From assembly GCA_030668875.1 (NCBI GenBank), contig DAOVER010000002.1, positions 1 through 32,000 of the forward strand: a DNA stretch of 32,000 bases, in the 5' to 3' direction. The position numbers and the translations under genes are program-made. This stretch comes from Candidatus Heimdallarchaeota archaeon (GTDB lineage: Archaea > Asgardarchaeota > Heimdallarchaeia > Heimdallarchaeales > Heimdallarchaeaceae). Under the pieces are notes generated by a model. The model did not search any database and had not been told where the DNA came from. It saw nothing but the letters and a program-made list of their open reading frames with translations. Below are positions 1 through 15,442 of the stretch, piece after piece (position 1 is the stretch's first letter; each line of letters begins with the position of its first letter).

Positions 1-17
1 TTATCATTGTTGTTTAC

Positions 18-242
18 TTGATAACTAAGAAAAGAGATGTACTATACATGATTATTGTCTGTACGCTTGAATTCCCTCTATTTGTGTTTCTAGCATATTG
101 TGACCAGATGATAACTCTTGCTACCCTAGTTGTGCTAGGAGGATTGGTGTATATAAGAGAACCTCTAAAAACACATGCAAAACGAGCCATGGACCTTAAG
201 CTAGCTAAAAAACAGTTAAAGCATGAAAAACAACACCACTAA
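18..242 (+). CDS. Small hypothetical membrane protein (may be 5'-truncated by the window edge; alternative ATG at 48)
   Basis: Two hydrophobic segments followed by a basic tail; the frame is open to the window start; T-rich tract follows. Confidence 0.55.
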   Translation: MITKKRDVLYMIIVCTLEFPLFVFLAYCDQMITLATLVVLGGLVYIREPLKTHAKRAMDLKLAKKQLKHEKQHH

Positions 243-354
243 AACTAACAAAATTCCCTCTTTTTTCTTTTTAAAATAACATAAAATCTCCTTGTTGGAA
301 GGTGAACTACTTAGAACAAAGGACGAGAAGGTCTAGAATTTTCTGTAATTTCAG

Positions 355-705
355 TTATCGCAGATTTAAAGAAATCATAGAAATTACTAATGCAGTTATT
401 GATAGAACTATCGCACTCCATGAAGCTAAAACCTCTAATATTGCTGTTTCACGTTCTTTCATTGTTCTTATCTCTATTGCTAAAGATTCAAGTTCTTTTG
501 TTAGCATAATGTTTGCTAAGTTAAGTTTAATCATTTCTCGTTCTTCTAACCATTTGTAGAAACTTGTTACTTCATCAAAGCCTTTTTCCAATTCCTTCTT
601 TTTCTTGTTCAATTTGAAAATATTGATGACTGTTGTGTCCTTTAGGATTTTTAAGAAGTAATCATCTTTTTGTTTTCTAAATTCATTAATAATATCAACA
701 ATCAT
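355..705 (-). CDS. Hypothetical protein, charged helical region with C-terminal TM helix
   Basis: 116-aa ORF with Lys/Glu-rich helices and hydrophobic C-terminus (VLASWSAIVLSITALVISMISL). Confidence 0.65.
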   Translation of the reverse strand: MIVDIINEFRKQKDDYFLKILKDTTVINIFKLNKKKKELEKGFDEVTSFYKWLEEREMIKLNLANIMLTKELESLAIEIRTMKERETAILEVLASWSAIVLSITALVISMISLNLR

Positions 706-873
706 CCATCCTGCAGAGCTTTTATCTTTCCCAGTAGTATCTTTGCTTGTAAAGAGAACATCTAACTAATTTAGTCTTTTTTCATTTAAAATATCAGCAA
801 ACATACATCTAGTATTCTTAAACGCTTATAATTGTGTTTTGCTTTTTTATACTTAAAACTAGTTTAACAGCTG

Positions 874-1113
874 ATGAGTGAATATTCTGATTATCAGGTA
901 ACAGCTGTAGAATATGAATCAGAGAAAGCTTTCTTTGCCAAGATTAAGAATTTGACAGAGATTTGTATTTGGATTCCTAAATCAGTTGTTGGTCCTGAAA
1001 GAAAAATTAAGCAATGGTTCATAGATCAGAAAAAGAAAGAATTGCTCGAACATGAGAGAATGAAGAAACAGAAAACAATGACAGATTTCATTAGTCGAAA
1101 AACTGCTATTTAG
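874..1113 (+). CDS. Small hypothetical protein of a type seen in viruses/mobile elements
   Basis: 79 aa with an ESEKAFF...IWIPKS pattern I associate with small viral proteins (recollection, not searched); TATA-like ttttatacttaa upstream. Confidence 0.65.
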   Translation: MSEYSDYQVTAVEYESEKAFFAKIKNLTEICIWIPKSVVGPERKIKQWFIDQKKKELLEHERMKKQKTMTDFISRKTAI

Positions 1114-1176
1114 TCTCAACTTGGTTGAAACTAAGATGTATTACAGTAGTTTTTAAAATAATTGGCTCAAGAATAA

Positions 1177-1869
1177 ATGGTTAAATTGAACAAATGCAAA
1201 GAAAGATTTTCACCCATTTGGGATTTTGTGAAAGGGAAGTGGAAATTAATATTAACCGTGCTTTTTTTGACAGGTATAGTTATACTTACAATTTTACTAA
1301 ACTACTTTGGGTATTTAGATACATATCAATTTCTAACAGATCTTTTCTCTGGATTGATTATTGTCATAACAGGTTGGATTTTAGCATGGATAATTGTTCA
1401 TAGATATCAAAGAAGAAACATTGATACTCAAAACAAGAATAAGCTGATTGAAGAGATTGCAGCATTTAAAATATCATTGCGTGAAACCACTCGAGCATGG
1501 TTCAGATGTGCAGATGACATAGACAACAAAAATTTGTGGTATTCTGCATCTGGTAATAGATTAGATATAGAAACTAAACGAGAGATTCTCTATTTTAAGT
1601 TACTAAATATATATTCTAACTATTTAAAAAAAGAATTTAGGAATGTAACAAAAGAGAATAAATCACCAACTTTCAAGCTTAAAGATTTACGTGAAAGTTT
1701 CGATTATTATGTTAATGAAATTTCAAATGGTTTGAATGCACGTGTTTATGATGATAAATCTTCTAAAAGTATTTCCAAGTACGAAAGGGAAGTGCTTCTG
1801 TATTTATCAGCTATTCTACTAGATATTATAGGAAAACCAATTTCCAAAGAGATTAAGAAAAATAACTAA
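1177..1869 (+). CDS. Hypothetical membrane protein (2 N-terminal TM helices plus soluble domain)
   Basis: 230-aa ORF with two hydrophobic stretches in the first 75 aa. Confidence 0.75.
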   Translation: MVKLNKCKERFSPIWDFVKGKWKLILTVLFLTGIVILTILLNYFGYLDTYQFLTDLFSGLIIVITGWILAWIIVHRYQRRNIDTQNKNKLIEEIAAFKISLRETTRAWFRCADDIDNKNLWYSASGNRLDIETKREILYFKLLNIYSNYLKKEFRNVTKENKSPTFKLKDLRESFDYYVNEISNGLNARVYDDKSSKSISKYEREVLLYLSAILLDIIGKPISKEIKKNN

Positions 1870-2068
1870 TTTGAATTGTGAGGGTAGAGGCGGTTTTTTC
1901 ACAGAATGTTGTTAAGTGTGACAATATAATACTATCCTCTTTGTTTCCACGTGGAAACACTTTTTCTTTAGTTGGGAACTTTGATTCAATAAAAGCTAGA
2001 AATAGAAGCATAGCTAAAGGGATAGCACTTATTATTATGGTAGTTAGAAGCGTCTCGTTAATGCTCAT
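1853..2068 (-). CDS. Small membrane protein (71 aa)
   Basis: ATG at 2068 preceded by SD-like AAGAAGGGGGG; N-terminal TM helix LLTTIIISAIPLAMLLFLAFI. Confidence 0.5.
   Translation of the reverse strand: MSINETLLTTIIISAIPLAMLLFLAFIESKFPTKEKVFPRGNKEDSIILSHLTTFCEKTASTLTIQISYFS
1942..1959. promoter_or_regulatory. 18-bp perfect palindrome TGTTTCCACGTGGAAACA
   Basis: Read directly; shares the 12-bp core TTCCACGTGGAA with 3492-3509. Confidence 0.6.
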
Positions 2069-2490
2069 CGTCTCAACCCCCCTTCTTTTTATCTATTATT
2101 GGTTGATCAGTGTCGGGGATTTTGGGCGAGAGGGAAGAGAACCCAAGACGAGAGTTTTTTCTTGTGGGGCGATGATTGGCAGGGAAGAGGGGTTAAGACA
2201 CTGTGCGAGGGTTTTGAGTGCGTTATCTAGTGTGTAAGTGCGATATATCGGGAAATATATAGATGGCATATATAGGGGGGCTATATATCATCAGAGAGTG
2301 TTTTATCTTAAAACATCGGCATTCCATCGTAATAAAGCATGTTACATGATAGCAAACAGTTGTTTCAGACTAGTTAGACTGTATCACCCCCCTATTTTAT
2401 CGTCTCAAGCCTCCTCTTTTTTACCTATATTCTGTTGTTGGTTTGATAGGGGGAGTTTTGCAGGGGAAAGGGACATGAGACGAGAGGAAA
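2041..2490. other. Candidate replication origin / structured non-coding region
   Basis: Two 88-nt elements (2067-2154, 2399-2486) with shared ends flank a TATATA cluster and several short inverted repeats and G/C runs; no convincing ORF. Confidence 0.5.
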
Positions 2491-2539
2491 AGAAAGGGGT
2501 GGTACGGAGATAAGGATCTAAAGAAAAGATTGTCGGAAA

Positions 2540-2740
2540 TTATTTCCGTTTTCCGTATAGGACACCTAATAGGTGGGGTATACGTTTCGGATTCCGTTTT
2601 ATAATCTCTTGTTTCAGCCTTTTCAATGGTGAATATCGTTGTTTTAAGCTTTTCTGGAAACTGTATAATTTAGGTGAAAAAGGAGTGAAAATAGTAGAAA
2701 AGTTGTCTTTATTTACCCAAATTCGAACTATATTACTCAT
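2540..2740 (-). CDS. Small basic protein, possibly ribbon-helix-helix DNA-binding
   Basis: 66 aa from ATG 2740; N-terminus NIVRIWVNKDNFSTI fits a beta-strand-then-helix RHH pattern; weak. Confidence 0.4.
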   Translation of the reverse strand: MSNIVRIWVNKDNFSTIFTPFSPKLYSFQKSLKQRYSPLKRLKQEIIKRNPKRIPHLLGVLYGKRK

Positions 2741-2897
2741 TTTCGAGTAACTATTTTCTAGCAAAACGGAAATTCTGGATTTTGATATTTAGATCCATTA
2801 CATAATAATGGTATTGTTTTGACCTACGTGGACAATCTGTCTATGCAGGTATGATCTAAACTACCTGATGTAATGGTGTCCATTTTGGATACTGTTA

Positions 2898-3239
2898 GTT
2901 GCAATTGATGAATCAGGGAGAGAGTAAATGCAACAAAGTAGAAGAAGCTCTAGATATGATTAAAGAAGCTATAGTTGCAATTGATGAATCAGGGAGAGAG
3001 TAAATGCAACAACGATTACTCTTATGATGTATATTTAGATGAAAATTATCTGTTGCAATTGATGAATCAGGGAGAGAGTAAATGCAACGGATCTTCTTTC
3101 TTGTGCTCTGGAGAACAACTTACTGTGTTGCAATTGATGAATCAGGGAGAGAGTAAATGCAACACTGTAACCATTTCTGAAAAGTGTACTTATTCTATTA
3201 TCGTTGCAATTGATGAATCAGGGAGAGAGTAAATGCAAC
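2898..3239. CRISPR. Mini CRISPR array: 5 identical 37-bp repeats GTTGCAATTGATGAATCAGGGAGAGAGTAAATGCAAC, 4 spacers (39, 41, 38, 39 bp)
   Basis: Repeats at 2898-2934, 2974-3010, 3052-3088, 3127-3163 and 3203-3239; terminal inverted GTTGCA/TGCAAC; unique spacers. Orientation unresolved. Confidence 0.97.
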
Positions 3240-3491
3240 ACAATGAAACAGAAAAGGCTACAGAAAAGTTATTGAATAAGAAAATATTCCGAGGATTCTT
3301 TATTAGAAGGCTTTTAAACCGACTATTAAAAAATATAAGGGATAAATTATGACTTGGGGCTTTGGTTCTCCGAGAGAATACGTTATTTCCCACGATAACC
3401 GTTTCCTTAATGCAATTAAGAAAGAGCACAATAAAACATGAATCTCTTTAGAGCTGCTTACTATAAAGGCTTGAAGTCTCAATTTCATATT

Positions 3492-3509
3492 TTATTCCAC
3501 GTGGAATAA
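3492..3509. promoter_or_regulatory. 18-bp perfect palindrome TTATTCCACGTGGAATAA
   Basis: Read directly; same core as 1942-1959. Confidence 0.6.
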
Positions 3510-3553
3510 TTTCTGTTTTCTTGATCAAGTTATTCTAACCATTCTTTTATTTC

Positions 3554-3691
3554 TCATTGGTCCGAACAAATCAGCTTAAATTTACATTTCTGACATTTTT
3601 TAGAATAAAAATTCCATCTAGAACAATTGCTGGCTTTAGCTTTTTCAATTGTTGGTAGATCCTTGTAAGTTAAATTAGCAGCAGGTTGCAT
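3554..3691 (-). CDS. 45-aa four-cysteine microprotein (absent from the ORF track)
   Basis: My translation: MQPAANLTYKDLPTIEKAKASNCSRWNFYSKKCQKCKFKLICSDQ. ATG directly follows the upstream stop (TAAATG), with AAGGAAGG upstream; motif C-x9-C-x2-C-x5-C. Confidence 0.6.
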   Translation of the reverse strand: MQPAANLTYKDLPTIEKAKASNCSRWNFYSKKCQKCKFKLICSDQ

Positions 3692-5011
3692 TTAGTTTCC
3701 TTCCTTTATTCTGTAAATCTTCTTTCTAGCTCCTTTGCCTTCTCGTTCTTCTTTGAGAGCTGTTATTTTTCCTAAATCTACTAGCTTCCTGATATGATAA
3801 TAGATCCGATTATAATCTAATTGTAAAGTTGTCATAAAGTCCTGGAGAGTATAGCTTTTTTCAGCAAGTAGTTTAAGTATTTCTGTCTGTAAGGAGTCAC
3901 TCCTAGCTTGGTTAGTTCTACTTACTTTGAGAAGTTGTATTTCCTCAGCTAGAAATTCACTCTCTTTTTTCATATTTGTATCATGATTCAGGATAAGATC
4001 AGCTTGATGGTCCATTCTCTGCAGTAGCATTAAATCATTAGTTGCTGTTTGTAGCTGGTATTGGGCTAGCTGATTGACATTATTATCAACTCTTCTTAAT
4101 AAATTATGATTTTCATAATAATCACTATCTAGCTGTTGGACCACATTTCTATTGTAATCTAACACAGAATTAAGTTTAGAAAAACTTTGATTGCTCGAGA
4201 TTGTAAATTGCTTAAGTACAGTATTCATTTTATTGAAAACAGTCCCAATACCTAAGTCTCTCTCATTCCTTTCAAGCTGTTTAATCATTCTATCAACAGG
4301 TATATCTACACGGCTTAATTGGACTTCTTTTCGTAGTCCTTCTTTCTTATTGTAAGCTGTTAAAAGAATATTTTCAAAAGCTTGCACACTAATATAATTA
4401 GCTCCTGCTATTCTCTGAAAATCATAATCTTGGTTCAAATCTAAATTTACTAACTGCATTTTATTATGATCGCTCTTTATACTTTTCAAGTGTAAGACCG
4501 TATCAATTGCAACAATCAAAGAGCGGAATTGATAACAATCTAAAGCTTTCTTCCATCCACTACATTTGAGATCTATCCTGATACTTTGAGTAGCTTTGTA
4601 AAAAGAAAAACGGATAGGTTGATTAAGTTCTAAAAAGGGGACATCTAATTTTTCATCTTTTCTTACAGGGACAGCTCGAATCATAATCATTACTCGATGA
4701 ATGAATAAAGGTTCATCAGGATTGAAAAAGGAATCTAACTCATAAGGGATCTGTTCAAGAGGCTTAGGTTTGAAATGATAGTAGAGATATGGTTTTGTTT
4801 CTGTTCTAGCTATAGAGTATTTTGAGCTGGTTGTTAATCTTGTTAATATTCTTCTAATACTCGAAGCTTTACAATCAGGATAAAGCTGTTTAATGGCTTT
4901 CACTATTTCCCCACAAGTAAGCTTATGATGAGAAGATTCAATTACTGCAATGATAGCTGTAGTTAAGGAAGAATGAATATTCTGTTGAGCTGTATCTTTT
5001 ACTTCTAACAA
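3692..5011 (-). CDS. Putative replication initiator: wHTH + Rep_trans-like catalytic domain + coiled coil + wHTH (~439 aa; ORF track start 5053)
   Basis: SD AGGAGGT 8 nt before TTG at 5011. N- and C-terminal winged-helix patterns. Central motifs LVNLDLNQD and TAYNKKEGLRKE resemble pT181-family RxDxAxD / IRIYNKK / RxE. Confidence 0.6.
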   Translation of the reverse strand: MLEVKDTAQQNIHSSLTTAIIAVIESSHHKLTCGEIVKAIKQLYPDCKASSIRRILTRLTTSSKYSIARTETKPYLYYHFKPKPLEQIPYELDSFFNPDEPLFIHRVMIMIRAVPVRKDEKLDVPFLELNQPIRFSFYKATQSIRIDLKCSGWKKALDCYQFRSLIVAIDTVLHLKSIKSDHNKMQLVNLDLNQDYDFQRIAGANYISVQAFENILLTAYNKKEGLRKEVQLSRVDIPVDRMIKQLERNERDLGIGTVFNKMNTVLKQFTISSNQSFSKLNSVLDYNRNVVQQLDSDYYENHNLLRRVDNNVNQLAQYQLQTATNDLMLLQRMDHQADLILNHDTNMKKESEFLAEEIQLLKVSRTNQARSDSLQTEILKLLAEKSYTLQDFMTTLQLDYNRIYYHIRKLVDLGKITALKEEREGKGARKKIYRIKEGN

Positions 5012-5511
5012 TTTGAATGACCTCCTGAAGTTGAAATGATAAATGAGCGACAAGCGACATAGGGAGATAGGTTAATTGTCGCTCTTTTTTCAAAAATTTT
5101 GAAAGTGATAATCTGTTGAATAAGAACCTTTGAAACAATAAATAAGCTAATAATTGTTACTAATATTTTTAAAGAATGTTTTTCAAAAATATAGGTAGTT
5201 GAGACAATTACTTTTTCAAAAATAATCTGTTTAACCTTCCTTTTTAGAAGGTAGTGTTTACATACGAAATACGGGTGAATAACAACAGTAGAGCTTATTA
5301 AACCCTTAATTTCCTCTGGACAATGATTCAAAGGATCTACTAGATGGTTAACTAAGTTATTCAAAGTGACAAGAAGGTATAAAGTCGTTTTAGAACCTCT
5401 GAAGCTCTCTGCCTTACATTTTCCTATTATACCCTTATCAGAAGGTAACTTATTAGAAGGAGTTCTAATTAAGAAGGGAGTACCTTTGCTTCGAGTGGAG
5501 ATTGTCTCCAA
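5005..5511 (-). CDS. Possible hypothetical protein (168 aa)
   Basis: Its stop overlaps the TTG start of the putative Rep, but the sequence has no recognisable features and spans repeated 12-mers; may be non-coding. Confidence 0.25.
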   Translation of the reverse strand: METISTRSKGTPFLIRTPSNKLPSDKGIIGKCKAESFRGSKTTLYLLVTLNNLVNHLVDPLNHCPEEIKGLISSTVVIHPYFVCKHYLLKRKVKQIIFEKVIVSTTYIFEKHSLKILVTIISLFIVSKVLIQQIITFKIFEKRATINLSPYVACRSFIISTSGGHSNC

Positions 5512-5803: not shown

Positions 5804-6971
5804 TTATTGAGTAGTCTCCTCTAGCGCTGTTATAGAATCCCTAGTTCCTGGTATTAAATCAATTGATAGAAGAATGTCAACTTCGATTCCTTGTTTATTA
5901 ATGAACTTTGTCTCATATACTTTTGGTACTGATTCAGGATCGATTCTTCTTTGTTTATGCAATTCAAGTAATCTTTGTAATTCTACATTAGGAATGTGAT
6001 TTGTCCAACTCATTTTTCCTTCTACCTCCTCTTTGGTGAAGCCAGTTATTCGTTCAAACTGCGAATTTACTCTTTTCATTATTGTATCTTCGCCAAAGAT
6101 ACATATTGCAGATGAACTAATTTCGAAAATAGATTGATAGAGATTGTGTGATCTTATCAATTCATTCTCTGCATTTTTTTGTTCTGAGATATCCCGGAAT
6201 ATTCCTAAGAGGTAGCTCCCATCATTAGTTTCAATAATATTAGAACTTATACTTACTGGGATCCGTTCATTATTAGTTGTTAAAATCTCAGATTCATAGA
6301 CGAATATTTTTCCAGAAGCATGGACGTTAAAAGCTTCCATTGTCTTTTTTATGCGGTCATGTGGATGAAGGTCATCTGCATTCATTTTCGTGATGTCGTA
6401 ATAAGTTTTACCTATCAATTTTTCTGCTTGTTGATTGCAATCTATCAATTTTCTTGTAATTGGATCTGCTACAAAAACAGCATCGGGAATTGTTTCGAAT
6501 AGATTTCTATATTTTATCTCGCTAGCAAGTAATGCTTCTTTTGTTTCCAAACTATCTATTATTTCAATGATTTTATGGTAGAGTTCTATAAATTGACTTT
6601 TAGCCTCTCCTCCTTTAAGAACATATCCTGCAGCACCTAGAGTAAATGCTTCAACAACTACTTCTTCCCTTCCTCTTCCTGTAAAAGATAACAAAAGGAG
6701 TGTCGATATTATGTCTTTTTAACTCCTTCAATATTTCCAAACCATTTGTGTCTATCATAAGATAATCACAAATAATAAGATCAAATTTGTTTTCCTTTAT
6801 TTTTGATACAGCTTCTGCAGGATTAACCTGTGAATCAATCACAAAAGAGTCATTACTTAGCCTTCGCAAGTAATTTTTGCTAATGTTAAGAAAATCTTCA
6901 TCATCATCAATATGAATAATTCTAACTATATTACTACTTTCTTTTTGGATTTTTAATCCATTTTCAACCAT
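5804..6971 (-). pseudogene. REC-PAS-PAS signalling protein split by a +1 frameshift
   Basis: Receiver N-part (IIHIDDDEDFL...DLIICDYLM) in 6651-6971 continues as FTGRGREE in another frame. One extra T at 6683-6686 (ATCTTTTACA vs expected ATC TTT ACA). Confidence 0.8.
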
Positions 6972-7396
6972 TTAAAACACTTCATCTTAATTTTTTTCAA
7001 GTAAGCGTGCTTATCTACGTTCCGATATGCTAAAAGCTTGATAAGTTTTGCTTTAATTCAATGTTTAGTTTTGATTGGGATATTGAATCTATTACGGACT
7101 TCTTTTGAAAGTAATTAATTTTCAAATTATTCTATTCATTGAATTTTTTAATGTATTGTGAGGAAATAGTGTTAATAAATCTCTCGAGATATGTTTTCTC
7201 AGTTCTTTGATGTGATTTTATGAGATTTGTCAACTTCAAGAAAATGCTGATTAGATTATCTATTCTAACTCTTGTTTTGACTGACGTCTCGATTATTAAA
7301 ATGGCAATTTAAGAGAAGAAAGAAAACAAAAGAGCATCAAGAGAATAAGACAAACCACAATCAAGTGAAAAAAATAGAAATACTAGCTAATGACTT

Positions 7397-10324
7397 CTAC
7401 TTGTTAGGGATTGTTATTCTGAAATTCGTTAGTTTTTCTTTTGTATCTATTGAAATTTTCCATCCATGTCCTTCAACAATTTTCTTAACAATAGAAAGCC
7501 CTAATCCAGTACTACCTTTTTTAGTTGAATAACCTCTATCAAATACTTTACTGATGATTTTCTCGTCTATTAGCTTTCCATCATTACTAATTGAAAACAC
7601 TACTTTACCCTTGTTTTCTATTTTAGTGACACTTAATTTGTCTGGTTTCCCATGCAATATTGCATTTTCAAATAGATTTTTGAAAACTTGAGACAGTTTA
7701 CCATTGTCTCCTTTAATAGTTCCCAAGCTGTCTTTATTGAATTTAATTCTTTTTGGAATGATAACATCAGCTACTGTCTCAACTAGTCTATCCAAATCAA
7801 CTTCATCTTTTTTCTCTACTGTAGTTCCTGCTTCTGCTAGTTCAATAGAATGTTCTAATAGATTTCCTACATAATTTGTTCTTCGAAGAATTTTCTCAAA
7901 ATAAAGGTCTTCATACTTTTCCTTTAGTTGATCAACATACCCTTCAATTGCAGTTAAGCTATTTCGAATATCGTGACCCATGAAGTGGGCAAAATCACTT
8001 AATTCATCTTTTTGTTTGCTAATTTCATCTTCAACTTTTTTTCTTTTGGTTATATCAATTAAAGAAGCGAGAAAGTTTTTAGTTCCTGGGACACTTTTAA
8101 CAGTGAGAATAATATCTCTAATTCTTCCATCACTACTAATGAATCTGCTTTCATATTGAACAGGAACCTTTGAGGGGTCTTCTTTTCGTATTTCATTAAA
8201 ATCTATCATCATATCAAGTTCCGGCTTCGGTATAAATTCCAACCATTTTCTCTTTCCTTCGACATCTTCTTTCTTGAAACCTGAAATGCTTTCCATTCTT
8301 GAATTAAAGAGAAGTATTGTCCCCTCTTCATCAAAAAGTAGGTTTGCAGTTCCTGTTGTTTCAAATAGGATTCTATAGAGATTGTATGATTTTTGAAGTT
8401 CCTCTTCTCTTCTCTTTCTTTCTGAGATGTCTCTGACTAAAGAAAGCATGACTTTTTTTCCTCTGAAATCGAAAATGTGGGCACTTGCCTCAACTGGAAT
8501 GATCTTTCCTTCTTTTGTTTTATGTGAAGCCTCAAAAGTCATTTGTTTCTTCTTAACGACATCTCTAACGATTTCTGCTACTCTTTTTACACTTAATGAA
8601 GCAGGTAGTTCTGTAGGAGACATCTTTAGAAATTCTTCCTTTGTGTATCCCAGCATTTTTGTTGCATTATCATTTACTTCCAAAAAGTTTTCAGGCATTC
8701 CATTATTATCAATAGTGTAGAGATAAATAGCAGCATTTGCATTCTGGAAAATATATCTGAATTTTTCTTCGCTTTCCTTCAGTTTCTTTTCAGCTTCACT
8801 TTGTTTTGTAATATCTCTGGCAACTGTTAAGATGGTTTTTCTCCCCCCTATAGTTAAGTTATGAGAGTTAAATTCAACGATTCGAGAATTACCATCCTTG
8901 TTTACTATAGTACTTTCAAAAGTTATTTTTCCTGTTTTTCTGAAAATTTTACCAATATTTTTATTTTTCGAGAACAATCCTTCCTTATCTAAATCATAAG
9001 GAGTCATTTCTAGTAATTCTTTCCTAGAATACCCTGTCCATTCGCATACTATATCATTTACTTCAATGAATTTACCTAGTTTATTATTTTTATCTAAATA
9101 ATGGATAAACATACCATCTTGTGTGCTGTTAAATATTTGTCTAAATTTTTCTTCATTTTCTCTAAGTTCTTTTTCTGCCTCTATTCGCTTAGTAATATCT
9201 CTACTTTTAGACATTATAATTTGCTTATTACCTAGATTTACTAGATGCACGCTAAGTTCCTGGTGGTAAGGAGTACCATCTTTTCTTTTTGCTAGTGTCT
9301 CACAAGTAATGTATTTCTCTTCTATGATATTTTTCAAAATATTTTCCGCAAATTCTGGATCATCATACGTTTCAAAATCTAAAACGTTTTTACCTACCAT
9401 CTCCGATCTTTCATATCCGTACCTTTCTAAACTACTTTTGTTCACATCAATAATCGTTCCATCAGTTTCTACAATTGAAATACCATCAAATGAATTTTCA
9501 AAAATCAACCTGAATTTTTCTTCACTTTCTTTTAGTTCTTTTTCCGCTTCTTTTTGTTCAGAAATATCAATTCCTATCCCTCCAATCCAAGAAGCCTTTC
9601 CCTTCAAATTGATAGGAAATTTGATTGTGTTAAAAGGGTGTCCAAATCTTTGTTTATCTGCTCGAGTTTCTGTTGTAACAGTTATTCCCTCTTCTCTTAT
9701 TTTTTTGTCTTCTTCTTCTATAGTTCTAGCTAATTCTGAAGGTAATAACTCACCTACTGTTTGACCCAGTGAATCTCTAATTCCAGTTTTCTCTTTCATA
9801 TATTTATTAACAAACCACATTTTTCCCTTGTCATCTTTTATGTAAGCTATAGCTGGCAAATTGTCCATAAAGTGAGAAAATCTTTCTTCACTGTCTCGAA
9901 GAGCTTCTTCAGCTCGTTTACGTTTTACAACATTTTTGATGTCATTAATCAATTCTGTAAACTGACTTTTAGCATCTCCACCCTTTCTTAAGTATGAATC
10001 TGCTCCTAGATTAAGAGCTCTAATAACAACTTCTTCTCTGCTTCGACCAGTAAAAATAATAAAAGGAATATCAATATTTTTTTCCTTAATGCTCTTTAAT
10101 AAATCCAAACCATCCATTGAAGGCATTAGAAAATCACATACAATGGCATCATACTTCTTCCTCTGTAAAGTTTCGATAGCTTGAGTAGGATCAGATAGTG
10201 GGTCTATTTGAATCTCTCCGTTGGTGATGTTTTCAACAAAATCTTTGCTTAAAGTAAGAAAATCAACTTCATCATCAATATGCAAGACTTGAACTGTTCT
10301 ATTATTTTTATGGCTTTTAATCAT
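7397..10324 (-). CDS. Hybrid sensor histidine kinase: REC + 5 PAS + HisKA + HATPase_c
   Basis: VLHIDDE...VCDFLMP receiver; five SEE(K/R)F / NLY PAS starts; H-box AHFMGHDIRNSL; N box FKNLFENA; G2 box GSTGLGLSIV. ATG 10324 preferred over 10381. Confidence 0.93.
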   Translation of the reverse strand: MIKSHKNNRTVQVLHIDDEVDFLTLSKDFVENITNGEIQIDPLSDPTQAIETLQRKKYDAIVCDFLMPSMDGLDLLKSIKEKNIDIPFIIFTGRSREEVVIRALNLGADSYLRKGGDAKSQFTELINDIKNVVKRKRAEEALRDSEERFSHFMDNLPAIAYIKDDKGKMWFVNKYMKEKTGIRDSLGQTVGELLPSELARTIEEEDKKIREEGITVTTETRADKQRFGHPFNTIKFPINLKGKASWIGGIGIDISEQKEAEKELKESEEKFRLIFENSFDGISIVETDGTIIDVNKSSLERYGYERSEMVGKNVLDFETYDDPEFAENILKNIIEEKYITCETLAKRKDGTPYHQELSVHLVNLGNKQIIMSKSRDITKRIEAEKELRENEEKFRQIFNSTQDGMFIHYLDKNNKLGKFIEVNDIVCEWTGYSRKELLEMTPYDLDKEGLFSKNKNIGKIFRKTGKITFESTIVNKDGNSRIVEFNSHNLTIGGRKTILTVARDITKQSEAEKKLKESEEKFRYIFQNANAAIYLYTIDNNGMPENFLEVNDNATKMLGYTKEEFLKMSPTELPASLSVKRVAEIVRDVVKKKQMTFEASHKTKEGKIIPVEASAHIFDFRGKKVMLSLVRDISERKRREEELQKSYNLYRILFETTGTANLLFDEEGTILLFNSRMESISGFKKEDVEGKRKWLEFIPKPELDMMIDFNEIRKEDPSKVPVQYESRFISSDGRIRDIILTVKSVPGTKNFLASLIDITKRKKVEDEISKQKDELSDFAHFMGHDIRNSLTAIEGYVDQLKEKYEDLYFEKILRRTNYVGNLLEHSIELAEAGTTVEKKDEVDLDRLVETVADVIIPKRIKFNKDSLGTIKGDNGKLSQVFKNLFENAILHGKPDKLSVTKIENKGKVVFSISNDGKLIDEKIISKVFDRGYSTKKGSTGLGLSIVKKIVEGHGWKISIDTKEKLTNFRITIPNK

Positions 10325-10444
10325 TTTTCCTGCGTCTGGATTATCCAAAGAAAAAACCTCATATATACTTATGAAAAACATGTATAAAATTCTTCGTTCT
10401 GTTCCATGAGCTAAACATTAAATAATAAGTTTTAAAATCGAATT

Positions 10445-11790: not shown

Positions 11791-13089
11791 TTGGAGGAAA
11801 ACATTATGGAAGATATACGCAAAAAACTAACAATTTCTCAAGAAAACTTGGACTCTGTTCAGAAGTTCTTCATGGATGAAAACAATCCCTTCATCACTGA
11901 TCTAATTCAAGTTATTGAGAAACATGGTGGAGTAGAAGAAATTAACAAGAAGTATACAGAATCCAGAAAACCAGAAAATATTTACAAAAAACTGGAAAAA
12001 ATCAAACCTGAATACATAGACGATTTGGATTGGCTGATTAAACAGCGAGATACTGATGCGTTTATCAGTGAAAGTGAATATAGAAGAAAGATTCTGGGAA
12101 ATGCTGTCGATCAAATGAGTTTTGATGATTCATATGCAGTTACACTAGAACTATCTGCATGTCAATATTTTCCGTTTCTAATTAAAGGCGCAGAAGAAAT
12201 GATCAAAAAGAAAGATTTGATGCCAGGTAGGATAATTCGTGTTCGAGCAATGAAAGAACAAGAAAAAGATGGTGATTTGTTAGCAATGACAGCAGCAGTC
12301 GATATTATTGGTGCATCAAGAGTAGAGACTCTCGATACTAAAGGAACTTCTCCTGGACCTGATGGAATGCCAGTGAATATTCATCTTGGAGGACCAGCAA
12401 CAATAACTGGTTACTTTGGAGGTGTAGGGCAACCCAATGATTTTGCTCTAAAGTGGGTGGATGAATTCCTCTATTATTACACAAATTATGGAGTGAAAAG
12501 TGTTCTAAACATCAACCCTGGAACAGTAATTTTGGGTTATTTGATGTATAAGCTTGGAATAAATAACGAATTCAAAATTTCTGTTTATATGGGTAATGAT
12601 AATCCTTACTCTGTGCTTTGGACATTGATGACTGCCAAACTGTTCTCCAGAGCTGATGGAACTAGCCCTCTTATTGGATTTAATCTATCTAATGCAGTTG
12701 ATAATTGGACAATCGAAATGAGCTCACATGTTCGTAAGAATTTTGGTTTTGAGGATGTTGTTCGTCTAGAACATCATATTATTGAAACATGGAAATCAAT
12801 AGTTCGTCAACCATATGATAGAACACAAGAGCTTCTAGAGCTTGCTAAGAAAGTTAAAAACATTAGTGCGAAACATGAGGGCGGTCCTGTAGATATAGAT
12901 CCAACTCGTGAACACCCTTCAGATATTCTTGATTATTTCCTTTCAAAGGAACAGATTACTGAACAAGGAATCTGGGATGGTCTTATGCAGAATTACTACG
13001 ACAGGCAAACCTCAATCAATAATACAGCCAAAGCTCTTACTGAAAATGGTATTGCTTTTATTGCAGCTAGAAAACTTCATCATAAGTAA
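11791..13089 (+). CDS. Conserved protein of unknown function (432 aa, enzyme-like)
   Basis: Long globular ORF with glycine-rich motifs (HLGGPATITGYFGG, SAKHEGG); first gene of a metabolic cluster. Confidence 0.85.
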   Translation: MEENIMEDIRKKLTISQENLDSVQKFFMDENNPFITDLIQVIEKHGGVEEINKKYTESRKPENIYKKLEKIKPEYIDDLDWLIKQRDTDAFISESEYRRKILGNAVDQMSFDDSYAVTLELSACQYFPFLIKGAEEMIKKKDLMPGRIIRVRAMKEQEKDGDLLAMTAAVDIIGASRVETLDTKGTSPGPDGMPVNIHLGGPATITGYFGGVGQPNDFALKWVDEFLYYYTNYGVKSVLNINPGTVILGYLMYKLGINNEFKISVYMGNDNPYSVLWTLMTAKLFSRADGTSPLIGFNLSNAVDNWTIEMSSHVRKNFGFEDVVRLEHHIIETWKSIVRQPYDRTQELLELAKKVKNISAKHEGGPVDIDPTREHPSDILDYFLSKEQITEQGIWDGLMQNYYDRQTSINNTAKALTENGIAFIAARKLHHK

Positions 13090-13104: not shown

Positions 13105-14265
13105 ATGAAAGAAATTGCTACAGGAATGCATAAGATACTTGGTGAAGGAGCATTTGAGTACCTTGCAAAAGCTCAAGCTGAAGAACGGAAAGGAAAAAAT
13201 GTTCTTCACTTTGAAATAGGTCAACCTGATTTTCCTACACCCGAGCACATAAAACAAACAGCTTATGAGGAGATTAAAGGAAATTATACCGGCTATGTTT
13301 CTGCAACGGGTATTTTTGAATTAAAACAAGCAATCCAAGATGAAATCGAACAAACTAGAGGATATCGTCCAAGTATTGAACAAATTCTAGTACTTCCAGG
13401 GGCAAAACCTGGAATTTTCTTCACCATGTTAGGTCTTGTAAGTCCAGGTGATGAAGTGATGTATCCCGATCCTGGTTTCCCTACCTATGGTTCTGTAACA
13501 AAATATCTTCAGGCAGTTGATGTTCCAATAGCCCTAAAAGAAAAGAATCAATTCAAGCTAGATCCCGCAGATGTTGAAAATAGAATAACACCCAAAACTA
13601 AGCTAATTATATTGAATAGTCCTCAAAACCCAACAGGTTCTGTAATGACCAAAAATAAGCTCTATCAAATAGCTGAATTAGCTGAGAAACACGACATCTA
13701 TATTCTTGCAGATGAAATATATTCAAAAATGCTATATGAAGCAGATTTTCACTCAGCAACAGTTCTAGATGAAGCGAAGAAAAGAACATTTTTACTAGAT
13801 GGATTCTCAAAATCCTATTCTATGACAGGCTGGAGACTAGGCTACTTAGTTGGACCAGAAACATTAATCGAAAAGATGGGGCTAATTATGATAAACGCTT
13901 TATCTTGCACTACTTCATTCGTTCAAAAAGCTGGGATAACTGCTTTGAAGGGTGATCAAAAACCATTGAAGAAAATGATGGAAGCTTTTAAAGAGAGAAG
14001 AGATGCAATAGTTAAAGGATTGAATGAGATTACTGGTTTTTCGTGTTTAACTCCTCAAGGAGCATTTTATGCTTTCCCAAACATAATAGATACAGGAATG
14101 AATTCAAAAGAAATAGCTGATCATATACTCTACAAAGCTGGTGTTTGTTGTCTTCCTGGCTCAGCTTTTGGACCATATGGGGAAGGTTATCTAAGATTTA
14201 GCTATGCTACTTCAGTTGAAAACATCCTACAAGCTATGAAACAGATCAAGGAATCCTTTGATTAG
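13105..14265 (+). CDS. PLP-dependent aminotransferase class I/II (aspartate aminotransferase-like)
   Basis: GQPDF, NSPQNPTG, DEIY, GFSKSYSMTGWRLGY (PLP Lys), GAFY motifs. Confidence 0.93.
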   Translation: MKEIATGMHKILGEGAFEYLAKAQAEERKGKNVLHFEIGQPDFPTPEHIKQTAYEEIKGNYTGYVSATGIFELKQAIQDEIEQTRGYRPSIEQILVLPGAKPGIFFTMLGLVSPGDEVMYPDPGFPTYGSVTKYLQAVDVPIALKEKNQFKLDPADVENRITPKTKLIILNSPQNPTGSVMTKNKLYQIAELAEKHDIYILADEIYSKMLYEADFHSATVLDEAKKRTFLLDGFSKSYSMTGWRLGYLVGPETLIEKMGLIMINALSCTTSFVQKAGITALKGDQKPLKKMMEAFKERRDAIVKGLNEITGFSCLTPQGAFYAFPNIIDTGMNSKEIADHILYKAGVCCLPGSAFGPYGEGYLRFSYATSVENILQAMKQIKESFD

Positions 14266-14401
14266 CTTAACACAAAACATCGAATTTATTCTCGATTTTT
14301 TTCTTTTTTACATCTAATTTTTTGTGTAAACAATCTCTTCTTGACAGCAAACTTATAAGTTGTGTTTCTAGAAGTTGGACGACAATAAAAATAGAGGTTA
14401 A

Positions 14402-15442
14402 ATGATGGAATTTAGAATTGCATTTATTGGGTTTGGCGTTGTTGGACAAGGATTTGCAGAGATACTTGTTGAACAAGAACAAGTACTGAAAGAGCGATAT
14501 GATTTCGACTTCAAGGTAGTAGCTATTTCAGATACTATGAAAGGTTCAGTCTTTGATGCTCAAGGATTAGACCTAAGCAAATTGCTTTCCTTAGTTAAGG
14601 AAACAGGGAAGATTGAAGATTATCCTGAAGGCATAAAAGGATGGGATTCTTTAAAGACGATTACTGATTCTACTGCGAATTTGATATTGGAAGTAGCATG
14701 GACTGATTTGAAAACAGGTGAGCCTGCAATTACCCATGTCAGAACCGCATTAAAAAATAAGAAACACGTTGTCCTTACCAACAAAGGTCCTATAGCTTTG
14801 ATTGTCCGAGAATTATTGGCATTAGCTAAAGAAAACGATGTTGAAATGAGATATGAAGGGACAGTGCTAAGTGGTACTCCCGCACTTAATTTAGGTCTGT
14901 ACAATCTTGCTGGATCTGGAATAACTAAAGCTAAAGGTATAGTCAATGGTACAACTAATTATATCTTAACTGAGATGGAGAAAGGATTGGATTATGAATC
15001 TGCCTTAAAACAAGCACAAGAATTAGGATATGCAGAAGCTGATCCTACAGCTGATGTTGAAGGTTATGACGCTCTAGGAAAAATTGTTATACTTGCTAAT
15101 ACTGTTATGGGAGCTAATCTAAGCAAAGATGAACCATCCTGTGAAGGTATAACAAAAATTACAGCTGAAGACATAACAAAAGCAAAGGCTGAAGGTTTCA
15201 GATGGAAATTAATTGCTGGCGCTGAAATCAAAGAGGATGGTTCGGTTGAAGCATATGTGCGTCCAGAAAAAATCCCTCTTAATCACCCCTTAGCTAATAT
15301 CATGGGTCCAACCAACGCCTTAACTTATACTACAAAATATCTAGGTGACGTTACAATAGTTGGACCTGGTGCTGGACGAGTTCCAACTGGTTATGCACTA
15401 TTGACAGATATTTTGGATATCAACAGAATAGTAAAGGAATAA
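14402..15442 (+). CDS. hom: Homoserine dehydrogenase
   Basis: GFGVVGQG Rossmann motif, VVLTNKGP, YEGTVLSGTP, GIVNGTTNYIL, AQELGYAEADPTADVEG.D...K. Confidence 0.93.
   Translation: MMEFRIAFIGFGVVGQGFAEILVEQEQVLKERYDFDFKVVAISDTMKGSVFDAQGLDLSKLLSLVKETGKIEDYPEGIKGWDSLKTITDSTANLILEVAWTDLKTGEPAITHVRTALKNKKHVVLTNKGPIALIVRELLALAKENDVEMRYEGTVLSGTPALNLGLYNLAGSGITKAKGIVNGTTNYILTEMEKGLDYESALKQAQELGYAEADPTADVEGYDALGKIVILANTVMGANLSKDEPSCEGITKITAEDITKAKAEGFRWKLIAGAEIKEDGSVEAYVRPEKIPLNHPLANIMGPTNALTYTTKYLGDVTIVGPGAGRVPTGYALLTDILDINRIVKE

Follow-up and report, generated by a model that had tools for sequence, protein, structure and literature searches.

A cassette-borne winged-helix protein of Heimdallarchaeia with a predicted TBP-like core and features of a DNA-nicking initiator

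We analysed a 32-kb stretch of DNA (the window), which forms the start of contig C40 of G000, a Heimdallarchaeial MAG of 3.23 Mb in 99 contigs with 92% completeness. One of its genes encodes P0002, a 439-residue protein with a winged-helix (wHTH) domain at either end, a set of invariant motif residues in a central domain whose confidently modelled half is TBP-like, and a place in a small cassette with the context of a mobile element, where it occupies the position that an HUH Rep holds in a related element. We consider it most likely, with a probability of roughly 0.45, that P0002 is an initiator-type protein of a mobile element, which binds and nicks DNA and has a TBP-fold core. The initial annotation had proposed a divergent archaeal rolling-circle initiator with two DNA-binding ends. 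This interpretation is partly supported, and more so by genomic context than by the profile, structure and conservation checks: the winged-helix ends, the conservation of D209, Y234 and E243, the TBP-like half domain and the mobile context speak for it, whereas a profile match is absent and D205 is variable.

Results

Domain layout of P0002

The gene and the parts of its product are as follows.

3692..5011, (-): gene for the 439-aa protein P0002; TTG start at 5011, homologs starting at the equivalent of 5011
4769..4972, (-): N-terminal winged helix, residues 28-95 (P0001); DUF7669 match and three modelled helices, the wing modelled poorly
4268..4762, (-): central beta-rich domain, residues 98-262; 117-207 confident, b-b-b-b-a-b and TBP-like, model of 208-262 unreliable
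4325..4441, (-): motif stretch D205-x3-D209 ... Y234-N-K-K ... R241-x-E243; candidate active site with residues invariant in 14 sequences
3860..4246, (-): single long helix of ~130 residues, residues 270-398; AlphaFold2 helix at P0002 256-384, pLDDT 63-83
3695..3859, (-): C-terminal winged helix of ArsR/Csa3 type, residues 399-453; profile and fold matches

The frame is open over 453 codons (3692-5053(-); P0001) from an upstream TTG, and the database entries and all homologs start at the TTG at 5011, which yields the 439 aa of P0002. Residue numbers such as D205 and Y234 refer to the 453-aa frame P0001, not to the 439-aa P0002. The gene is present as a single copy in G000. A Pfam scan returned two weak wHTH matches only, to DUF7669 at 37-90 (E 1e-4, just under the cut-off) and to HTH_5 at 388-428 (E 4.6e-4); Pfam, NCBIfam and PHROGs scans of the protein gave wHTH hints and nothing else, and PDB sequence searches with the single protein or with a central-domain profile produced no useful match. 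AlphaFold2, supplied with an alignment of 12 sequences, modelled the protein with an overall pLDDT of 59.8: three helices form an N-terminal unit, the centre is rich in beta structure, a single uninterrupted helix spans P0002 256-384, and a wHTH makes up the C-terminus. P0002 has the wHTH fold of ArsR/MarR-like winged-helix proteins, and wHTH matches dominated a fold search with the full-length model. The ~130-residue helix, as modelled, is probably a dimerising coiled coil.

Pfam and AlphaFold2 thus confirm the winged helices that had been claimed at ~28-95 and ~387-450 (28-95 and 399-453 in the present layout), and D205, D209, Y234, N235, K236, R241 and E243 are all present in the 453-aa frame. 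A polar helical segment had been placed at ~255-385; the helix itself was recovered, but AlphaFold2 puts it at 270-398, about 15 residues later. Judged by the AlphaFold2 and Pfam layout, the earlier description of the protein parts was therefore correct apart from this shift.

A small family with an invariant motif

Protein searches covering 5.8 and 1.8 billion sequences, together with a profile search, recovered about 15 relatives, all of them from Heimdall/Asgard MAGs or marine metagenomes, and revealed no bridge from these to known families. Within 399 Asgard genomes the central domain was restricted to the window's own genus (6/24 genomes, compared to 0/375 other Asgard genomes) and was always single copy in the six positive genomes. 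Searching phage and plasmid collections with the central domain by tblastn gave nothing better than E 0.7, and IMG/VR scans with the family alignment and with the homolog P0014 found no relative. NCBI labels the homologs wHTH transcriptional regulators.

Across 14 aligned central domains, reaching down to 34-36% identity (P0014), D209, Y234, N235, K236, G239, R241, E243 and Q245 were invariant, and H119 and R159-I-D161 were nearly so. D205 varied, being His in P0014 and Asn in a fragment from locus L009. Among the four acidic and Tyr residues that had been singled out for a conservation check, D209, Y234 and E243 were accordingly conserved in the 14 sequences and D205 was not.

Comparison with pT181 RepC and other Rep_trans proteins

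Rep_trans initiators have a crescent beta-sheet built from two five-strand TBP-like modules, with the catalytic Tyr on a strand facing the sheet cavity and three acidic metal ligands on strands 1, 6 and 11 (D46, D142, E214). They nick their origins in a Mg/Mn-dependent manner, forming a covalent 5'-phosphotyrosine link. Four motifs of P0002 can be paired, in the same order, with motifs of pT181 RepC: NLDLNQD with RLDLAFD, ANYIS with TKYFG, TAYNKK with RIYNKK, and LRKEVQL with WRVEIEL. The spacing between the counterparts of RLDLAFD, IRIYNKK and WRVEIEL is tighter in P0002 than in RepC, the Arg of the first motif is replaced by Asn and the Arg preceding the Tyr by Thr, such that T232 stands where Rep_trans proteins have an Arg two residues before the Tyr (R189 in RepD). 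By eye, IHRVMI and IRIDL of P0002 also pair with FD46AMTI and MRIEF of RepC, respectively. The pT181 comparison made in the initial annotation (motifs, tighter spacing, first Arg replaced by Asn) agrees with the actual RepC sequence.

Y234-N-K-K237 is present and invariant in the P0002 family, with a structural position of Y234 that is unreliable in the model, and YNKK fits YxxK, the consensus of Rep_trans motif III (PMC13107129). By sequence, H119, D205/D209 and E243 are candidate metal ligands, of which H119, D209 and E243 are conserved and D205 is not. The central domain comprises ~165 residues with perhaps 8-9 strands, compared to 11 in Rep_trans.

Profile similarity to Rep_trans was absent. 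The Pfam Rep_trans profile (PF02486) matched nothing in P0002 at E<=10 and nothing in G000 at E<=1, a PDB profile search gave no match, and hhalign against the pT181 family aligned the YNKK stretch only (P 0.24), with a Rep_trans profile that was shallow because the RepC search had given near-identical pT181 proteins only. None of the profile methods (Pfam, genome search, PDB profile and, for Rep_trans, hhalign) detected Rep_trans, Phage_CRI or DUF7845 in P0002. A profile Smith-Waterman test scored 54.3 against a column-shuffle null of 39.7 +/- 6.9 (p 0.037). When the family profile was aligned to the single RepC sequence, the score of 71.9 exceeded those of 248/249 natural decoys of like length from G000, whereas two other Rep_trans proteins scored 53.8 and 50.2, near the decoy mean of 48.9, and the local HUH Rep scored 43.9, below it. 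As RepC was significant and the two other Rep_trans proteins were not, the likeness is restricted to the pT181 subfamily and largely to one short YNKK block. At the sequence level, a relationship to Rep_trans is thus suggested for the pT181 subfamily only.

Predicted fold of the central domain

We also folded the central domain alone, using the alignment of 14 sequences. Domain residues 20-110 (P0001 117-207) were modelled with a pLDDT of 83-97 in the strand order b-b-b-b-a-b. Domain residues 113-182, which hold D209 to E243, had a pLDDT <50 and were drawn as helices rather than as the strands of Rep_trans; in this low-confidence part Tyr234 is set on a helix. In a Foldseek search of the PDB almost all of the top 35 rows were TBP (E 0.046-0.4, prob up to 0.97), the shape neighbours in the ESM Atlas included TBP clusters together with one cluster in which 14% of the members carry Phage_CRI (TM 0.47), and the BFVD neighbours were viral TBP-like proteins and one inovirus Rep with weak scores; all of these structure-search scores fall in the range that the tools call common. 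The best language-model neighbours of residues 90-260 included Phage_CRI and Rep_trans clusters (score 0.77), which we take as a lead only. TBP is the best structural analogue of the confident half domain, with weak scores, 3-14% identity and one module modelled; unlike P0002, it has no Tyr/acidic motif, no wHTH and no coiled coil.

The confidently modelled half of the central domain is thus TBP-like by prediction, and Rep_trans belongs to the TBP-like fold class (PMC4797284). The structural likeness to Rep_trans is indirect, at the level of this fold class: RepDE and RepSTK1 (4CWC, 4CIJ) were never listed by the structure searches with the domain model, and the motif half stayed at pLDDT <50.

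The gene lies in a probable mobile cassette and shares its slot with an HUH Rep

The following features surround the gene.

5037..5213, (-): conserved upstream DNA block (AATTGTCTCAAC, CCTATATTTTTGAAAAA, GTCGCTTGTCGCTC), conserved across cassettes
3554..3691, (-): 45-aa four-cysteine microprotein gene, directly downstream of the P0002 gene
5491..5501, no strand: structural breakpoint inside the dyad GGAGA-TTG-TCTCC

What is conserved across the loci of the genus is a 170-nt stretch of DNA upstream of the gene, the gene itself and a microprotein of 45-111 aa; some loci have an ORF of 151-268 aa in addition. The upstream block at 5037..5213, which contains GTCTC dyads, a TATA-like box and two copies of GTCGCT, is probably a promoter/operator. 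A 168-aa ORF at 5005-5511(-) that overlaps the gene start was considered as a partner gene and dropped as probably not a gene, because its upstream half is chromosomal flank shared with the cassette-free site of the closest relative, G301 (homology from 5245, inside the ORF); the part of it that is conserved resembles conserved DNA rather than coding sequence. The microprotein has the four-cysteine core NCSKWNFYSxKCxxCKYxxICA and is kept downstream of the gene in loci L005, L006, L007 and L038 and downstream of an HUH Rep on contig C95 of G000; it follows both kinds of Rep-slot gene, in six loci.

This HUH Rep (G000 C95:3958-5226(-)) is a clear HUH Rep_1 initiator, with an atlas score of 0.97, the motifs ILTYP, HWHVHV and SKYISR, and weak Pfam Rep_1 and Zn_Tnp_IS91 matches. 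After it come genes for a 99-aa Cys-rich zinc protein, for a 59-aa protein homologous to the 4-Cys microprotein and for an RNase_T exonuclease sharing 53% identity with the RNase_T of the element encoding P0014. Given these common 4-Cys and RNase_T neighbours, the HUH Rep and the P0002-type protein, which are unrelated, alternate in one slot of related elements. P0002 occupies the slot where related mobile elements carry their replication initiator, and as such it is plausibly a very divergent DNA-nicking initiator. The C95 region (C95:2300-5300; locus L037), outside the window, is a second mobile module in G000, and its first 2.2 kb hold non-coding blocks common to the L006 cassette.

Distant homologs lie on mobile elements too. 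P0014, a 34% homolog, is encoded one gene from an upstream tyrosine integrase on 30-41-kb virus/plasmid-like contigs, which also carry small co-directional ORFs, a ParB fusion and the RNase_T exonuclease, and P0016 is found on a virus-like contig. Furthermore, the cassette sits at different chromosomal sites in close relatives: its neighbours are PAS kinases in the window, while L006 has RagA-type GTPases next to it and L007 and L009 have JAB/F420-ligase genes. In G301, the window's right flank occurs with no cassette beside it, the homology beginning at 5245, and contig C54 of G000 has the left flank of L006 at its end. Apart from the P0002-type gene, the cassettes encode no candidate for a replication or mobility enzyme. 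No tRNA genes were present at the cassette borders, no target-site duplications were identified, and neither an integrase nor an origin or a circular form was apparent for the copy in the window. To the right of the cassette, 5804-10381(-) holds a PAS signalling cluster composed of a 296-aa PAS protein, a receiver-domain protein and a 994-aa hybrid histidine kinase; on the other side, the element extends past the left end of the window.

Contigs from three other sediment/cold-seep studies match the window from 1 to 5491 at 99% or more and then continue into at least two other sequences, which places a structural breakpoint at 5491-5501. The sequences beyond it had no full-length match in G000 or the fetched loci, and 2/13 loose-end 30-mers matched partially. 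The GTCTC pentamer of the breakpoint dyad recurs in the upstream block and in the twin elements described below. One run, X1, holds the window form and a further continuation past 5491-5501.

The P0013 locus (L038:494-2041) shows exchange within the gene itself: an unrelated module takes the place of the protein's first ~390 residues, in a cassette that is otherwise near-identical to that of L006 (98% in the upstream block, 88% from the coiled coil onward). A variable sensor or regulator would account for such a swap just as well as an exchanged nuclease would.

Candidate binding sites and a possible non-catalytic role

Two rare dyads in the cassette are candidate target sites.

3495..3506, no strand: palindrome TTCCACGTGGAA, candidate site for a dimeric wHTH protein; rare dyad
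1945..1956, no strand: second copy of the palindrome TTCCACGTGGAA; rare dyad

CCACGTGG occurs twice in the window against 0.02 expected, and the two cassette copies of TCCACGTGGA (1945 and 3495) are the only ones in the 3.2-Mb genome; the frequency of such dyads genome-wide is 0.02 per kb. Two similar dyads lie on either side of the gene in L005, and two CCCAC(A/T)GTGGG dyads lie downstream of it in L006.

Paired dyads around the gene in three cassettes would also suit a non-catalytic, site-specific DNA-binding protein of the cassette, such as a repressor, a partition-like protein or a maintenance factor, which we regard as possible though rather unlikely. A coiled-coil dimer would then bridge two dyads by means of four wHTHs, the TBP-like domain would bind DNA or a ligand, and the Tyr, Asp and Glu residues would be structural or take part in binding. 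It is consistent with such a role that the two wHTH domains are the only parts with database support, that the NCBI name of the homologs is that of transcriptional regulators, that P0002 has no significant likeness to any nuclease family, and that DNA binding without cleavage is known from TBP itself and from several further domains of the TBP fold. However, the invariant Tyr, Lys, Arg, Glu and Asp fall on alternating positions of predicted strands, a pattern seen more often in active sites than on surfaces that bind DNA. The equivalence in position with the HUH Rep, the integrase next to P0014, and the occurrence of cassettes at different sites yet with no other candidate replication or mobility enzyme likewise argue for the nicking initiator over a purely DNA-binding protein.

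The CRISPR array is cargo of a subset of cassettes

Two further features lie to the left of the gene.

2898..3239, (+): Cas-less mini-CRISPR array of 5 x 37-nt repeat with 38-41-nt spacers; repeat found only beside the cassette
2067..2486, (+): twin 88-nt elements separated by AT-rich sequence; conservation (74-79%) limited to the array-bearing L006 cassette

The repeat family GTTRCAATTRATGAATCAG-N7-GTAAATGCAAC was found in 2/24 genus genomes (G000 and G301), in both beside the cassette and together with conserved flanking DNA (74-91% identity). The array at 2898-3239 is the sole one with this repeat in G000, and L006 has mini-arrays at 14029-14450 and 12650-12760. The spacers differ between the two array-bearing genomes and had no target in G000 or the fetched loci. 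The initial annotation had described the gene as lying beside the array, which is true for 2/6 cassette-bearing genomes, the window's included, and not for the other four; the loci of P0014, P0016 and P0013 are without an array as well. Thus, the array, being confined to two genomes and absent from the other cassettes and from the distant homologs, is cargo of a subset of cassettes and not part of the family's core.

This distribution bears on the idea that P0002 serves the array, as a Csa3-like wHTH protein that binds the leader or repeats of the Cas-less mini-array and controls or processes it, or cuts DNA on its behalf. The co-occurrence of array, flanking DNA and gene, with the repeat nowhere else in the 24 genus genomes, points in this direction, as do the failure to find Cas1 in the 92%-complete G000 assembly and the best PADLOC match of the C-terminal wHTH, which is to the wHTH of Csa3 (E 2.6e-7, profile positions 117-203 of 305). 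However, PADLOC contains defence proteins only, so a generic wHTH must match Csa3 or CasR there, a Pfam scan found no CARF domain in P0002, and the array lies outside the conserved core of the cassettes, which is made up of the gene, its upstream block and the 4-Cys ORF. We therefore consider a dedicated array factor improbable; the novel array-associated DNA-cleaving role that had been offered as an alternative to the initiator is, with array and gene together in 2/6 genomes, unlikely as a core function. P0002 resembles Csa3/ArsR-type regulators in its C-terminal wHTH and, in two genomes, in the position of its gene beside a CRISPR array, but it contains neither a CARF nor a metal-sensing domain, and arrays are absent from the neighbourhood of most family members.

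Possible strand transfer by another kind of tyrosine enzyme

At one locus, L006, 60-nt inverted repeats with 80% complementarity (9763-9822 and 13498-13557) enclose the gene, the 151-aa ORF, the 4-Cys ORF and the two-repeat mini-array. Repeats bracketing a cassette are one of several observations compatible with P0002 being a tyrosine strand-transfer enzyme of another kind, i.e. a very divergent HUH-like nuclease or a recombinase/transposase that moves the cassette between sites rather than replicating it; others are the different sites of the cassette in close relatives with no integrase, the breakpoint at 5491-5501 within a GTCTC-containing dyad whose pentamer recurs, and the helix on which the low-confidence model sets Tyr234, as in HUH enzymes. 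We see little chance for this explanation. P0002 lacks the HUH motif, having a single conserved His (H119, in IHRV) and no His-hydrophobic-His before the Tyr motif; its family profile scored below the decoy mean against the local HUH Rep; its strand order b-b-b-b-a-b differs from the HUH/RRM-like order and its Foldseek neighbours are TBP; and the inverted repeats occur at this locus only, with no target-site duplications identified.

Discussion

If P0002 is a nicking initiator, the coiled coil would form a dimer in which two wHTH pairs bind dyads of the cassette, e.g. TTCCACGTGGAA and the GTCTC/GAGAC dyads. The central TBP-like beta-sheet domain would then nick one DNA strand with Tyr234 as the nucleophile and with a metal held by conserved polar residues, for which H119, D161, D209 and E243 are candidates. 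Nicking would start rolling-circle replication or transfer of the element, as it does with the Rep_trans (RepC/RepD) and Rep-Arvir initiators. The context favours an initiator or mobility role, with an integrase next to P0014, an HUH Rep in the equivalent slot and varied chromosomal sites, whereas the Thr in place of the Arg before the Tyr, the variable D205, the pLDDT <50 of the motif half and the absent profile matches count against an initiator. We infer homology to Rep_trans, catalysis and the target sites as plausible, and neither the profiles nor the models prove a nicking initiator.

How does P0002 compare with known initiators? With RepC/RepD of pT181 plasmids (PF02486; 4CWC, 4CIJ) it shares LDLxxD, an aromatic strand, YNKK and RxE in the same order, a catalytic domain (putative in P0002) of the TBP-like class followed by a separate DNA-binding domain, a dimeric state (predicted for P0002) and an origin on mobile elements. 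It differs from them in having no Rep_trans profile match, a domain of ~165 residues with tighter spacing and no alpha4 insert, as well as an extra N-terminal wHTH and a 130-residue coiled coil, and in being Asgard archaeal, not bacterial. Rep-Arvir proteins (DUF7845, PF25227) are archaeal initiators that include RepSNJ2 of the pleolipovirus SNJ2 (PMC13107129). Like P0002, they are archaeal mobile-element proteins with a link to integrases and a TBP-like fold that sequence methods do not see as Rep_trans; this fold was found via weak TBP and inovirus-Rep fold matches, as in P0002, and the TBP-like domain is joined to wHTH domains, of which some Rep-Arvir members have two. They differ in the order of domains, which is catalytic-wHTH-variable in Rep-Arvir and wHTH-catalytic-coiled coil-wHTH in P0002, with a catalytic domain that is putative, and in the motif, KHYYM as opposed to the YNKK of P0002. 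No DUF7845 match was obtained in P0002 or G000. Finally, HUH Rep_1 proteins (PF01446), including that of C95:3958-5226, are placed like P0002 with respect to the 4-Cys gene, in Heimdall elements that are related, and have the same proposed function, but P0002 is unrelated to them in sequence and apparent fold and carries no HUH motif.

A bolder version of the nicking-initiator proposal, which we put forward as tentative and on balance doubtful, is that bacterial Rep_trans and archaeal Rep-Arvir are joined by this family as a third branch of tyrosine nucleases with a TBP fold, one that is specific to Asgard archaea and has a permuted domain order. Its role would be to replicate or mobilise small cassettes of Heimdallarchaeia, some with Cas-less mini-arrays that would borrow the Cas proteins of the host or of another element. 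Searches for the two established families returned two sub-threshold matches only for Rep_trans in 399 Asgard genomes and one sub-threshold match only for DUF7845 in 300.

Next to nothing is known of the modules by which Asgard mobile elements replicate and move. A TBP-fold initiator would extend to the closest archaeal relatives of eukaryotes a superfamily that was recognised in archaea only in 2026, its origin and initiator would offer a handle for Heimdallarchaeia vectors, and a Cas-less mini-CRISPR array would be tied to a defined small element. If P0002 is only a regulator, it is an ordinary accessory gene product with an unusual architecture.

Two minor observations concern the wider set of elements. 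Aloposons, the giant-gene transposons of Heimdallarchaeum, were considered and found to be unrelated to the cassette. The L038 locus carries 21-nt tandem repeats, in about 15 copies, at L038:4303-4660.
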